Assembly (NCBI RefSeq): GCF_056746865.1 | Contig: NZ_CM163382.1 | DNA length: 64,000 bases | Direction: 5' to 3' (one strand) | In this document: one piece after another, positions 37,157 through 41,321 of the stretch | How positions within the stretch are numbered: position 1 is the stretch's first letter | Layout: each line of letters starts with the position of its first letter | The notes under the pieces: generated by a model | The model's input: only the letters and a program-made list of their open reading frames with translations | Databases searched by the model: none | Told to the model about the DNA's origin: nothing | Position numbers and translations under genes: made by a program

Positions 37157-38416
37157 ATGACGGATTCAATTCCATCAGGTTACAAGCCGCTGACATGTGA
37201 CACGCTGCCGGGTTATCTCTCGTCCAGACTGACCCCTTCATGCGAACCGGGAGGGTTACCTGAAGAGTGGAAAGTTTCAGAAGTGGGGGACGGAAACCTG
37301 AACATGGTGTTTATCGTTGAGGGGACACATAAAACCATCATTGTAAAACAAGCTCTGCCCTGGCTTCGTGCCGGGGGCGAAGGATGGCCTTTATCTCTGA
37401 GCCGTGCGGGCTTTGAGTACAACGTCTTATGTCAGGAAGCCAAGTACGCGGGTCACACACTGATTCCGCAGGTCTATTTTTACGACCCGGAAATGGCGCT
37501 GTTTGCCATGGAGTATCTGACTCCTCACGTGATTCTGCGTAAGGAACTGATTAACGGTAAAAAATTCCCTAAACTAGCTGAAGATATCGGCAGATTTTTA
37601 GCACAGACTCTCTTCAATACGTCTGACATTGGCATGTCAGCAGAACAGAAAAAAGCGCTTACTGCCGAGTTCGCGTTGAATCATGAGCTGTGCAAAATTA
37701 CGGAAGATCTGATCTTCACAGAGCCCTATTACAACGCTGAACGGAATAACTGGACTTCTCCTGAGCTGGACGATGCCGTCCATAAGGCCTGGGCTGATGT
37801 AGAGATGATCCAGGTTGCCATGCGTTATAAGTACAAATTTATGACAGAAGCGCAGGCATTGTTACATGGCGACCTTCATTCAGGCTCAATCATGGTGACC
37901 GACACGGATACCAAAGTGATTGATCCGGAGTTCGGTTTCATGGGGCCAATGGCGTTTGATATCGGCAACTATATTGGCAACCTCCTGCTGGCGTACTTCT
38001 CACGCCCTGGGTGGGATGCGAATGAGCAACGTCGCGCTGACTATCAGGAATGGCTGCTTCAGCAGATTGTCCAAACCTGGTCCGTTTTCACCCGGGAGTT
38101 CCGCCAGCTCTGGGACAACAAAACACAGGGCGACGCGTGGTCGACAGAAATGTATCAACAGAACAGGGCCGCTCTTGAGGACGCACAGGATCAGTTTTTT
38201 GCCACGCTGCTTGAAGATTCCCTGGTGAATGCCGGCATGGAAATGAATCGCCGGATCATTGGTTTTGCTGGCGTTGCCGAGCTGAAACAGATTGAAAATA
38301 CAGAGCTTCGCGCAGGATGTGAACGACGTGCATTGACCATGGCGCGCGATCTTATCGTCAATGCCCGCCAGTTTAAAAATATGGATTCCGTCATCCAGTC
38401 TGCGAAGGTTAAGTAA
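37157..38416 (+). CDS. mtnK: 5-methylthioribose kinase family protein
   Basis: 419 aa, AAGGAG SD; kinase motifs GDGNLNMVF, HGDLHSGS, DPEFG. Confidence 0.85.
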   Translation: MTDSIPSGYKPLTCDTLPGYLSSRLTPSCEPGGLPEEWKVSEVGDGNLNMVFIVEGTHKTIIVKQALPWLRAGGEGWPLSLSRAGFEYNVLCQEAKYAGHTLIPQVYFYDPEMALFAMEYLTPHVILRKELINGKKFPKLAEDIGRFLAQTLFNTSDIGMSAEQKKALTAEFALNHELCKITEDLIFTEPYYNAERNNWTSPELDDAVHKAWADVEMIQVAMRYKYKFMTEAQALLHGDLHSGSIMVTDTDTKVIDPEFGFMGPMAFDIGNYIGNLLLAYFSRPGWDANEQRRADYQEWLLQQIVQTWSVFTREFRQLWDNKTQGDAWSTEMYQQNRAALEDAQDQFFATLLEDSLVNAGMEMNRRIIGFAGVAELKQIENTELRAGCERRALTMARDLIVNARQFKNMDSVIQSAKVK

Positions 38417-38425
38417 GAGGTCATT

Positions 38426-39541
38426 ATGAATATTAAAGGTAAACACTATCGTACGGTCTGGGTTTCCGGGGATGGAAAAGCGGTAGAAATCATCGATCAG
38501 ACTAAGTTGCCTTTTAAGTTCGAGGTGGTGGCGCTTACCTCTGCGGAAATGGCCGCTACGGCTATTCAGGATATGTGGGTTCGTGGCGCTCCGCTTATTG
38601 GTGTCGTTGCAGCCTATGGCATCGCGCTGGGAATGAATCACGATGCCAGTGACATGGGTCTGCAGCGTTACTATGACCTTCTTATCAAAACCCGACCAAC
38701 GGCAATTAATCTCAAATGGGCCCTCGACAGGATGATAGACACACTGAAGGATCTCTGTGTATCAGAGCGCAAGGATGTGGCCTGGGCGCTGGCGGCAGAA
38801 ATTGCCGAGGAAGATGTCGCGTTGTGTGAACAAATTGGATTACATGGTGCAGAAGTCATCCGCGAAATAGCCCAGAAAAAACCGGCCGGGAGTGTGGTCA
38901 ATATCCTGACACATTGTAACGCAGGCTGGCTGGCGACTGTAGACTGGGGAACCGCGCTTTCTCCCATCTACAAAGCGCATGAAAACGGAATCCCTGTTCA
39001 CGTCTGGGTGGATGAAACGCGGCCACGTAATCAGGGCGGACTCACGGCATTTGAACTGGGCTCACACGGTATTCCTCACACCCTGATCGCCGACAACGCG
39101 GGTGGCCACCTGATGCAACACGGTGACGTTGATCTCTGCATTGTTGGGACCGATCGAACCACGGCCAGAGGGGATGTCTGTAATAAAATTGGTACCTATC
39201 TTAAGGCGCTGGCGGCCCATGATAACCATGTTCCCTTCTACGTCGCGTTACCTTCTCCCACTATTGACTGGACTATCGAGGACGGAAAAAGCATTCCGAT
39301 TGAGCAACGTGACGGAAAAGAGCAGTCCCATGTCTATGGGATAAACCCTCAGGGAGAATTGAGCTGGGTCAATACCGCCCCTGAAGGAACCCGTTGTGGG
39401 AACTACGCTTTCGACGTCACGCCTGCCCGATACATTACCGGCTTCATTACTGAGCGGGGAGTCTGTGCTGCCAGTAAGTCAGCGCTGGCGGATATGTTTG
39501 CTGACCTGAAGAGTAAAGCACTCCAGGGGGAACAGCATTAA
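38426..39541 (+). CDS. mtnA: Methylthioribose-1-phosphate isomerase (eIF-2B-like)
   Basis: 371 aa; motifs RGAPLIG, RPTAINL, CNAG, ETRP, GTDR, NKIGTY. Confidence 0.85.
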
Positions 39542-39571
39542 AACAGCGGCCATTGCTATTAAGGATCAGGA

Positions 39572-40213
39572 ATGGAACGGATTAAGTTAGCAGAAAAAAT
39601 CATTTCCACTTGTCGGGAAATGAATGCGTCAGGTCTTAATCAAGGAACATCAGGTAATGTGAGTGCCAGGTATACCGGTGGCATGTTGATTACGCCGAGT
39701 GGGATCGCTTATTCAAAGATGACGCCGGACATGATTGTCTTTGTAGACGATAAGGGAAAACCTGAAGCGGGTAAAATACCATCAAGTGAATGGTTAATTC
39801 ATCTGGCGTGTTATAAAGCCAGACCAGAATTGAATGCTGTCATACATACGCATGCGGTGAATTCCACGGCGGTGGCAATACATAATCATTCAATTCCGGC
39901 CATTCATTATATGGTGGCGGTATCGGGGACGGATCATATTCCCTGTATTCCCTATTATACCTTTGGCAGTCCTGAACTGGCCGACGGTGTATCTAAAGGA
40001 ATCAGAGAAAGTAAGTCCTTGCTGATGCAGCACCACGGTATGCTGGCCATGGACGTCACGCTGGAAAAGACGTTGTGGCTGGCGGGTGAAACCGAGACGC
40101 TGGCTGATTTATACATCAAATGTGGCGGATTACATCACGATGTTCCCGTGCTGTCTGAAGCCGAAATGACCATCGTCCTTGAAAAATTCAAAACGTATGG
40201 TTTGAAAGCGTAA
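39572..40213 (+). CDS. Class II aldolase (fuculose-phosphate-aldolase-like; probable methylthioribulose-1-P / 5-deoxyribulose-1-P aldolase)
   Basis: 213 aa class II aldolase/adducin fold with His-rich metal site; gene context with mtnK-mtnA. Confidence 0.75.
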   Translation: MERIKLAEKIISTCREMNASGLNQGTSGNVSARYTGGMLITPSGIAYSKMTPDMIVFVDDKGKPEAGKIPSSEWLIHLACYKARPELNAVIHTHAVNSTAVAIHNHSIPAIHYMVAVSGTDHIPCIPYYTFGSPELADGVSKGIRESKSLLMQHHGMLAMDVTLEKTLWLAGETETLADLYIKCGGLHHDVPVLSEAEMTIVLEKFKTYGLKA

Positions 40214-40316
40214 TTACAGCTTTATTTTAATTAATAACATATGACAGCCATTCGCAGAATGGCTGCTATTCCCTCTGTCCACAACGATTGATTATAACTA
40301 CCACAAGGAGTTATTT

Positions 40317-41321
40317 ATGTTTATCGTGGAATCGTATGCTGTCGCCATAATAATGTGTTTTATTACCATGATTTGCTGGGGTTCATGGGCGAATACAACT
40401 AAACTTGTCAGCAATAAAAAATGGGAGTTCCCTCTATTCTATTGGGATTATTCAATTGGATTATTGCTGTGTTCTTTGTTATTTGCCTTCACGCTGGGTT
40501 CTATGGGCGAAGCCGGTCGCAGTTTTATACCTGATATTCAGCAGGCGAGCAGCAGTAGTCTGATGTCGGCAATACTGGCAGGGATTATCTTCAATATTTC
40601 CAATATTCTTCTGGTCGCTTCTATTAATCTTGCCGGTATGGCGGTAGCTTTTCCTGTGGGTGTGGGGCTGGCACTGGCTCTGGGTGTGATCACCACCTAT
40701 ATCGGCAATCCGCAGGGCGATCCGCTCATTCTGTTCCTCGGTGTCGTCTGCGTTGTGATCGCCATTATTTTTACCGCGATAGCCTATGGTCGTGTCACGC
40801 AGGAGGCGGATAAATCTCGCCGTAATAAAGGTCTCATTACTGCCATTCTGGCGGGTATCATCATGGGATGGTTTTTCCGCTTCCTGGCGGACTCCATGTC
40901 TGACAATTTCAGCCAGCCTGCCAGCGGTCTGATGACGCCTTACTCAGCACTTGTTCTGTTTGCCGTGGGGCTGTTTTTGTCGAACTTTGTCCTTAACAGG
41001 CTGGTCATGAAAAAACCTATTTCAGGAGAACCGGTCAACGGGAAAATGTATTTTTCCGGGAGTTTACGGGATCATGTTTGCGGCTGGCTGGGCGGTATGA
41101 TTTGGTGTGTCGGTCTGGCATTCAGTCTGATTGCGTCTGGTCAGGCGGGGTATGCCATTTCCTACGGTCTGGGACAGGGGGCCACAATGATTGCCGTGAT
41201 CTGGGGAGTCTTCATCTGGAGAGAATTTGCCAGTGCGCCAGCCGGAACCAATAAACTGCTGCTGACCATGTTTATTTCATACATTGTGGGTATTGTTCTT
41301 ATTATCGCCGCTAATCAATAA
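40317..41321 (+). CDS. Polytopic membrane transporter (DMT/GlcU-RbsU-like sugar uptake family)
   Basis: 334 aa, about 10 predicted transmembrane helices; AAGGAG SD; follows the aldolase. Confidence 0.6.
   Translation: MFIVESYAVAIIMCFITMICWGSWANTTKLVSNKKWEFPLFYWDYSIGLLLCSLLFAFTLGSMGEAGRSFIPDIQQASSSSLMSAILAGIIFNISNILLVASINLAGMAVAFPVGVGLALALGVITTYIGNPQGDPLILFLGVVCVVIAIIFTAIAYGRVTQEADKSRRNKGLITAILAGIIMGWFFRFLADSMSDNFSQPASGLMTPYSALVLFAVGLFLSNFVLNRLVMKKPISGEPVNGKMYFSGSLRDHVCGWLGGMIWCVGLAFSLIASGQAGYAISYGLGQGATMIAVIWGVFIWREFASAPAGTNKLLLTMFISYIVGIVLIIAANQ

Follow-up and report, generated by a model that had tools for sequence, protein, structure and literature searches.

What pathway is encoded by the four co-directional genes at positions 37157-41321 of a 64,000-nucleotide stretch of contig NZ_CM163382.1 (RefSeq assembly GCF_056746865.1), and what does that pathway do? 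An earlier note on this stretch, which we call the window, had read the genes as a salvage cluster for 5'-methylthioadenosine (MTA) as well as 5'-deoxyadenosine, and had matched them to the dihydroxyacetone phosphate (DHAP) shunt of E. coli. Judged by sequence, the region is very probably an intact and ordinary copy of the E. coli DHAP shunt module, made up of mtnK, mtnA, ald2 and a permease gene together with a convergent mtnR gene. North 2020 (Mol Microbiol 113:923) is said to be the primary description of this operon in E. coli. The operon is already characterised in detail, and the present copy holds nothing new biologically: its growth phenotypes, operon structure, P1 promoter, CRP dependence and regulation by MtnR are described in Huening 2024 (PMC10986504) and Huening 2025 (PMC12632272). 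The features of the module are as follows.

37031-37156, plus strand: P1 promoter region and 5' leader, with hexamers, CRP-like sites, palindromes and a ribosome-binding site (RBS)
37157-38416, plus strand: mtnK, predicted 5-methylthioribose (MTR)/5-deoxyribose (5dR) kinase (TIGR01767)
38426-39541, plus strand: mtnA, predicted MTR-1-P/5dR-1-P isomerase (TIGR00512, PRK05720)
39572-40213, plus strand: ald2, class II aldolase, predicted to convert 5-deoxyribulose-1-P or 5-methylthioribulose-1-P to DHAP and an aldehyde (PF00596, PRK08087)
40245-40265, plus strand: G+C-rich hairpin in the ald2-permease spacer (predicted fold)
40317-41321, plus strand: permease of the drug/metabolite transporter (DMT) superfamily, labelled 'GRP family sugar transporter' by NCBI (PF07168, PF06800)
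41326-41349, no strand assigned: terminator-like hairpin, bidirectional, where the permease gene and mtnR converge (predicted fold)
41362-42348, minus strand: mtnR (yjhU), SorC-family (Bacillus-DeoR-type) repressor of 328 amino acids (PF04198)

The four open reading frames (ORFs), of 419, 371, 213 and 334 amino acids, lie exactly where the earlier note had placed them, all on the plus strand. The strong Shine-Dalgarno sequences it had reported are present (AAGGAG for mtnK, AGAGG for mtnA, AAGGA..AGGA for ald2 and AAGGAG for the permease gene). The short spacers it had described hold for mtnK-mtnA (9 bp) and mtnA-ald2 (30 bp) and fail for ald2-permease, which is 103 bp long. In a direct comparison with the ATCC 25922 cluster we found 13 differences over 4,165 nt, or 99.69% identity, which bears out the proposed match to the E. 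coli shunt. Eight amino acids differ, namely P329S in MtnK, E49D and T142A in MtnA, I63K and F76I in Ald2, and A144V, S148I and T228R in the permease. Gene order, gene lengths, spacers and the yjhU neighbour all match ATCC 25922, and the MtnR protein is 100% identical. The DNA belongs to an E. coli chromosome, and positions 22129-61409 of the window are 100% identical to strain FDAARGOS_497 once an IS21-family element, described below, is set aside. The supplement of the 2025 paper lists a 4,165-bp 'DHAP' query, the same length as the present cluster, and gives FDAARGOS_497 (CP033850) as 99.688% identical to ATCC 25922 (PMC12632272). By near identity with the ATCC 25922 locus (99.7%), we infer that the present locus would share its pathway function, its operon organisation, its repression by MtnR and its dependence on CRP.

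The long spacer before the permease gene spans 40214-40316. Its hairpin is predicted to be stable and is followed by no T-run, so it is not a canonical terminator. A second predicted helix in the spacer pairs the permease RBS with an upstream TATAACT. In five species the spacer measures about 94-105 bp and the hairpin keeps its position, with variation too sparse for covariation. A search of 36300-42700 against Rfam at E <= 1 returned no RNA family, which argues against a riboswitch or leader. In ATCC 25922, RNA-seq read depth is similar across all four genes (PMC12632272).

Profile scores support the family assignments made from the sequence earlier: an MtnK-like kinase, an MtnA-like isomerase, a FucA-like class II aldolase and a DMT-type transporter. 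MtnK scores 522.5 bits on the TIGR01767 equivalog (cutoff 275) and matches the solved MTR kinases 2PYW and 2OLC. MtnA scores 411 bits on TIGR00512 (cutoff 279) and 463 bits on PRK05720 (cutoff 271), and matches solved MtnA structures. The motifs GDGNLN, HGDLHSGS and DPEF of the kinase are all intact, and THCNAG and GTDR of the isomerase are conserved; following the B. subtilis structures, we take these to be active-site marks. Ald2 belongs to PF00596 and scores 365.6 bits on the FucA-like subfamily PRK08087 (cutoff 264). It aligns with E. coli FucA without gaps at 58.5% identity (E = 8e-81), and the FucA residues N29, S71, S72, E73, H92, H94, Y113, F131, H155, F206 and Y209 are conserved, while T43 is replaced by serine. 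In FucA, H92, H94 and H155 serve as Zn ligands and E73 and Y113 as catalytic residues; these and the phosphate site are conserved in Ald2.

In the proposed pathway, the housekeeping nucleosidase Pfs, encoded outside the window, would cleave 5'-deoxyadenosine and MTA to 5dR and MTR, and uptake of these sugars from outside would provide a second source. Pfs (MtnN) is reported to be conserved in all E. coli (PMC10986504). MtnK would then phosphorylate C1 of the sugar, MtnA would isomerise the product to a 1-phospho-ketose, and Ald2, as a Zn-dependent enzyme, would split the ketose into DHAP and either acetaldehyde or 2-(methylthio)acetaldehyde. DHAP and acetaldehyde would enter central metabolism and so allow growth on compounds of the 5dR and MTR type. 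In K. oxytoca, a gene for an iron-type alcohol dehydrogenase lies just 5' of mtnK on the same strand (locus L005, 2282-3382); this enzyme could be a candidate for handling the aldehyde product of Ald2. Growth of ATCC 25922 on 5dR is lost, and growth on 5'-deoxyadenosine and MTA nearly lost, when mtnK-mtnA-ald2 is deleted; the same genes on a plasmid restore growth to the deletion strain and enable K-12 to grow on 5dR (PMC10986504). Growth on 5'-deoxyadenosine, MTR and 5dR, which the earlier note had proposed as a check, had already been examined in that published work on ATCC 25922, with the predicted outcome. In ATCC 25922, MTA sulfur is not significantly recycled and ends up as 2-methylthioethanol, and the pathway is not required for detoxification, so the E. 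coli pathway is a catabolic route: it serves mainly carbon and energy catabolism of 5-deoxypentoses, and not mainly sulfur salvage or detoxification (PMC10986504). The reading as MTA and 5'-deoxyadenosine salvage is right about the shunt and needs refining in this respect.

Regulation of the operon has been worked out in ATCC 25922. There the four genes form one operon that is induced about 7.5 log2-fold by 5dR, with a regulated promoter, P1, and a weak distal one, P2 (PMC12632272). YjhU, renamed MtnR, is the repressor, and its deletion derepresses the operon about 5 log2-fold; CRP is an activator; 5dR induces the promoter, while fucose, rhamnose, arabinose and sialic acid do not; and 126 bp upstream of mtnK suffice for regulated expression, while 66 bp do not (PMC12632272). 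At the present locus, transcription would start mainly from P1, about 65-72 bp upstream of mtnK. Repression of P1 by MtnR would last until the cell contains an intermediate of the pathway, which is probably a phosphorylated 5-deoxypentose, and cAMP-CRP would activate the operon in the absence of glucose.

The sequence upstream of mtnK fits this scheme. A promoter scan found -35/-10-like hexamers, TTCAAA-18-AATAAT, at 37056-37085. Two CRP-like sites, at 37046-37061 and 37064-37079, lie 18 bp apart and imply a start near 37089; their spacing agrees with the published predicted CRP sites at -35.5 and -17.5 (PMC12632272). The published P1 start is 72 bp upstream of mtnK, which corresponds to 37085; for P2, the text of the same paper gives 188 bp upstream and the legend of its Fig. 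5 gives 218 bp (PMC12632272). We also found a palindrome, TGTCA-CA-TGACA, at 37109-37120 and a semi-palindrome, CAAAT-N8-ATTTG, at 37078-37095. The semi-palindrome has been proposed as the MtnR site and is printed with nine spacer positions (PMC12632272). The last 109 bp before the mtnK ATG are identical to ATCC 25922, with single-nucleotide polymorphisms at -110 and -142. When the upstream regions of E. coli, two Citrobacter, K. oxytoca and P. rettgeri are aligned, a conserved block appears at about 37066-37125, which holds ACAT-N3-TCACA, the semi-palindrome, TATAGT and TGTCACATGACA. Conservation of this block supports a regulatory role and narrows the stretch in which the putative MtnR operator would lie to about 60 bp.

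MtnR itself has an N-terminal helix-turn-helix and a PF04198 sugar-binding domain, which scores 268 bits (cutoff 27). Its closest solved structures are B. subtilis DeoR (8R7Y, the best match, E = 1e-41), SorC, LsrR and CggR, and it stays under the Bacillus DeoR equivalog cutoff (210.6 < 420). Neither HTH_DeoR nor DeoRC, the domains of the E. coli DeoR/GlpR family, is among the Pfam matches of MtnR. The fold family of MtnR is the SorC/Bacillus-DeoR type and not E. coli DeoR/GlpR, the family that has been used as an analogy for it (PMC12632272).

How is the module distributed? All five genes, mtnR included, are kept together in C. amalonaticus, Citrobacter sp. On2M, K. oxytoca and P. rettgeri. 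The genes that flank the module in K. oxytoca and P. rettgeri differ from those in E. coli and from each other. Across the five species MtnR is the best conserved protein (89-99% identity), and the permease (84-99%) and MtnK (78-95%) can be compared with it. Nucleotide homology with C. amalonaticus spans window positions 36875-42597, so the minimal module consists of the promoter, the four genes, mtnR and the region upstream of mtnR. Among 5,426 complete E. coli genomes, 1,078 (about 20%) carry at least 80% of the four-gene block at no less than 99% identity, and 1,596 carry any piece of it. The yjhU/mtnR gene is present in 1,601 of the 5,426, sensitive search included, a count close to that of the operon or its relic; this makes yjhU/mtnR an accessory gene, linked to the operon or to what is left of it. 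The count qualifies the published description of mtnR as widespread across E. coli (PMC12632272). The earlier note had taken yjhU for backbone. That view does not stand, as yjhU is the operon repressor MtnR, which occurs along with the operon within E. coli and, in other genera, travels with it.

K-12 is said in the earlier note to lack the cluster, and this is correct: only a 58-bp relic of the permease gene remains there. K-12 is 100% identical to the window over 6339-10338 and 99.98% identical from 41264 onward; it equals the window minus 10339-41263 (30,925 bp). One edge of the missing stretch coincides exactly with the right end of the IS1 next to fecI (9571-10338) and the other lies inside the permease gene, so that the last 58 bp of that gene (41264-41321) are left beside yjhU. 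IS1-adjacent deletions are known to take this form. K-12 lost the DHAP shunt, along with the Ag43/CP4-like module, through an IS1-adjacent deletion. The scar and its 58-bp relic indicate that K-12 did not simply never acquire the operon, and that the K-12 yjhU is an orphan.

The least understood member of the module is the permease. It scores 67 bits on PF07168 (cutoff 27) and 30.5 bits on PF06800 (cutoff 26.3, residues 75-332), which we take to be DMT-clan families. It lies outside the characterised RhaT/GlcU subfamily, with 34.6 bits on TIGR00776 against a cutoff of 319.6, and a sequence search against solved structures gave no match. RefSeq annotates it either as a 'GRP family sugar transporter' or as a 'multidrug DMT transporter permease'. 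It belongs to a large and strongly conserved family, in which 106 of 338 columns are invariant from E. coli to Bacteroidia. Homologs with at least 84% identity come with the full shunt module at all seven loci (7/7). At the 12 loci of homologs with 54-72% identity, a PfkB kinase gene is adjacent or within about 2.7 kb each time (12/12), and the four stand-alone PfkB kinases tested from beside permease relatives all pass ribokinase equivalog cutoffs. A further Bacteroidota locus has a ribokinase, a nucleoside hydrolase and an ADP-ribosylglycohydrolase next to the permease. With these ribokinase-linked neighbourhoods, the family looks like a ribose-type uptake permease, and gene neighbourhood suggests that the shunt-linked clade most plausibly imports C5-modified ribose analogues (5dR or MTR). 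Only three positions separate the shunt-linked from the ribokinase-linked group consistently, A88/G, T127/N and L190/V. In ATCC 25922 the permease gene is co-transcribed and co-induced with the enzyme genes, about 7.5 log2-fold by 5dR (PMC12632272). As a tentative model, to which we would give somewhat less than an even chance, the permease may be a dedicated 5dR/MTR importer that arose from ribokinase-linked ribose permeases by a few changes (candidates G88A, N127T and V190L) and became fixed in a mobile five-gene Enterobacterales module, with the K-12 yjhU as an orphan and not a conserved regulator kept for other targets.

Some E. coli strains carry an IS66-family element that splits the permease gene; in others the operon is reduced to mtnA(part)-ald2-permease or to ald2(part)-permease. 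The split permease and the partial clusters show that the operon is decaying in several lineages.

A mobile element lies upstream of the module.

33734-36370, minus strand: IS21-family element (istA, istB; ISSso4-like), 2,637 bp, with IstA and IstB above NCBIfam cutoffs

The element is flanked by a target duplication, CAGTCAC, at 33727-33733 and 36371-36377. It sits in a cbtA toxin remnant of a CP4-like module, the one that the earlier note had called IS21-disrupted; the remnant is already truncated in strains that are free of the IS. The insertion is 787 bp upstream of the mtnK gene. The two operon promoters that have been mapped (72 bp and about 188-218 bp upstream of mtnK) are both downstream of the element, and the insertion spares them. 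The exact IS21 junction of the window occurs in none of the 5,426 complete genomes. LS45 and several human isolates have a different IS21-family element, the 2,580-bp ISEc12, about 505-513 bp upstream of mtnK, at a site that corresponds to window positions 36644-36653; in LS45 its istB is frameshifted (locus L002, 6155-8734). ISEc12 and the IS21-family element of the window are independent insertions into one non-coding stretch. Further away, the window has insertions relative to FDAARGOS_497 within 18805-22128, of which the piece 19145-20135 matches an IS2-type element at 95%. The 64-kb window contains no tRNA gene, and leuX lies outside it. Like the fec/IS1 region, the right flank (yjhU-yjhF-yjhG-sgc) matches what K-12 and ATCC 25922 have in their leuX/KpLE2 region.

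The earlier note had also mentioned an upstream GATC motif. The GATC cluster is real: GATC sites lie at 36687, 36705 and 36718, another lies at 37016, and five more are in 19-nt IS terminal repeats. The 64-kb window holds two triple GATC clusters within 35 bp, where 1.1 are expected under random placement and 1.5 under a Markov model, and the cluster is absent from the shunt module of C. amalonaticus, K. oxytoca and P. rettgeri. We considered it as an enriched motif and rejected this, since its number is within chance expectation and it is missing from the module in three other species. We likewise rejected a decayed IS21-type terminal repeat array, as local alignments were no better than shuffles; this test covered the two termini of the window's IS and those of the LS45 ISEc12 in eight comparisons, and the best result was 3 of 300 shuffles in one of them. 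The other triple cluster, at 26889-26921, lies just upstream of the agn43 ORF (27067-30261), in the place of the Ag43 Dam/OxyR phase-variation switch. We treat the cluster upstream of mtnK as chance, as it is without statistical or comparative support as a functional element.

Several observations weigh against reading the region as an ordinary, working module with its own importer. The Ald2 allele has F76I (codon 39797-39799), three residues past the catalytic E73; position 76 is phenylalanine in the orthologs of ATCC 25922, Citrobacter, Klebsiella and Providencia and in FucA, and, among the sequences compared, isoleucine is peculiar to the present allele group. This allele is widespread. The proposed operator as published, CAAAT-N9-ATTTG, has no match in the window, where the spacing is N8, as it is in ATCC 25922. 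From the geometry of the hexamers and CRP-like sites, P1 would start within about 37085-37092 (65-72 bp upstream of mtnK), where the published value is 72 bp (PMC12632272). K-12 with the three enzymes grows on 5 mM 5dR without the permease (PMC10986504), so the permease is dispensable there and its role putative.

The enzymes also invite other assignments. A cluster for universal methionine salvage, in which the aldolase-fold protein would be the MtnB dehydratase and sulfur would return to methionine, would likewise use MtnK and MtnA, and MtnB belongs to the same Pfam family, PF00596, as Ald2. However, Ald2 falls far under the MtnB cutoff (68.5 bits on TIGR03328 against 137), compared with its 365.6 bits on the FucA-like subfamily. 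No mtnC/D/W/X-type genes lie inside the cluster or adjoin it, and MTA sulfur in ATCC 25922 builds up as 2-methylthioethanol instead of being significantly recycled (PMC10986504). For the ATCC 25922 system, moreover, the purified protein has already been reported to turn 5-methylthioribulose-1-P into DHAP and 2-(methylthio)acetaldehyde, and not into 2,3-diketo-5-methylthiopentyl-1-P. We give this reading almost no credence. Nor is it at all probable that Ald2 is a second L-fuculose-1-P aldolase and the cluster one for an L-fucose-like 6-deoxyhexose or another sugar, and not for 5-deoxypentoses. The ungapped 58.5% identity to FucA, the conservation of all FucA active-site residues and the RefSeq name 'L-fuculose-phosphate aldolase' speak for it, yet Ald2 stays under the fucA equivalog cutoff (317.6 < 400.25) and the linkage of its gene is in every case to mtnK and mtnA and not to fucI or fucK. 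Moreover, the promoter in ATCC 25922 answers 5dR and not fucose, rhamnose, arabinose or sialic acid (PMC12632272), and the three-gene deletion specifically abolishes growth on 5dR (PMC10986504). The 5-deoxypentose assignment of the DHAP shunt is the one we keep.

For the permease, the alternative carries more weight. It may not be a 5dR/MTR importer at all; it may be a general ribose or pentose permease that came along with the module, or an exporter of the aldehyde or alcohol products or of 'multidrug' substrates. Growth of K-12 on 5 mM 5dR with mtnK-mtnA-ald2 alone would fit this, as would the ribokinase linkage of the 54-72% relatives, which are probably ribose carriers, the mere three positions that separate the two groups, and the IS66 inside the gene in some strains. 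We nevertheless consider it unlikely. The permease gene is co-transcribed and induced like the enzyme genes (PMC12632272), it is kept in the module in all five species (5/5) at 84-99% identity against 78-95% for MtnK, and the neighbourhoods of its family are consistently those of catabolic uptake and never of efflux. Import of 5dR or MTR is the function that we carry forward as a proposal. An epigenetic switch of the operon that depends on Dam methylation of the three GATC sites at 36687-36721, like the switch upstream of agn43, is very improbable. There are just two triple clusters in 64 kb and the other one is upstream of the agn43 ORF, but 1-1.5 are expected by chance. The cluster is 439-470 bp upstream of mtnK, outside the approximately 250 bp common to all operon-bearing strains and outside the homology with C. 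amalonaticus, K. oxytoca and P. rettgeri. The stretch upstream of P2 shows no transcription start and no promoter activity, and the one upstream fragment tested for it, UR2, no CRP binding (PMC12632272).

What follows from this for the biology of the operon? The pathway lets extraintestinal pathogenic lineages of E. coli, including ST131 and ST69, use by-products of S-adenosylmethionine reactions as carbon, and an accumulation of these compounds in urine has been reported. The tie of yjhU to the operon or its relics weakens the published view that other regulatory targets are what keeps mtnR across E. coli, and the loss of the operon from K-12 is a precisely definable IS1-adjacent deletion. 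With the cross-genus footprint, the stretch in which to look for an MtnR operator shrinks to about 60 bp. The linkage of permease relatives to ribokinase gives a concrete hypothesis for the putative permease function.

Compared with known systems, the nearest is ATCC 25922, whose right flank, yjhU-yjhF-yjhG, is the same as that of the window. The left flank differs: in the window it is a CP4-like YeeU/CbtA remnant with a private IS21-family insertion, and in ATCC 25922 it is a glycosyltransferase fragment and restriction-gene remnants. The shunt of Rhodospirillum rubrum and Rhodopseudomonas palustris (MtnP-MtnA-Ald2) has the same isomerase and class II aldolase chemistry that yields DHAP and an aldehyde (PMC10986504), but it uses the MtnP phosphorylase instead of Pfs and MtnK, and it salvages sulfur to methionine according to the literature. 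The ribokinase-linked permeases of Aeromonas, Photobacterium and Bacteroidota show 54-72% identity with the window's permease, at the same length; each has a true ribokinase as neighbour, in Bacteroidota a nucleoside hydrolase as well, and the partner is not MtnK/MtnA/Ald2. These gene sets resemble the ribose utilisation system of B. thetaiotaomicron with RusT (bioRxiv 10.1101/574913). RusT itself may belong to the permease family; of the best 120 matches to a Bacteroidia homolog of the permease, none was a named B. thetaiotaomicron protein. The SorC-family repressors, B. subtilis DeoR, CggR, LsrR and SorC, share the helix-turn-helix and PF04198 architecture with MtnR.

For the aldolase, E. 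coli FucA (1FUA) has the Zn ligands, catalytic residues and phosphate site in common with Ald2, whereas the genomic partners of Ald2 and its inducer (5dR, not fucose) differ from those of FucA. DrdK-DrdI-DrdA of Bacillus thuringiensis shares the kinase-isomerase-aldolase logic on 5dR. Ald2 has the same fold family as the B. thuringiensis aldolase structure (6BTD/6BTG; 6BTD match, E = 8e-33) and resembles FucA of E. coli (E = 8e-81) far more than it does DrdA. The role of the Bacillus pathway is reported as detoxification and not growth (PMC10986504), in contrast to the E. coli module, which serves mainly to catabolise 5-deoxypentoses for carbon and energy.

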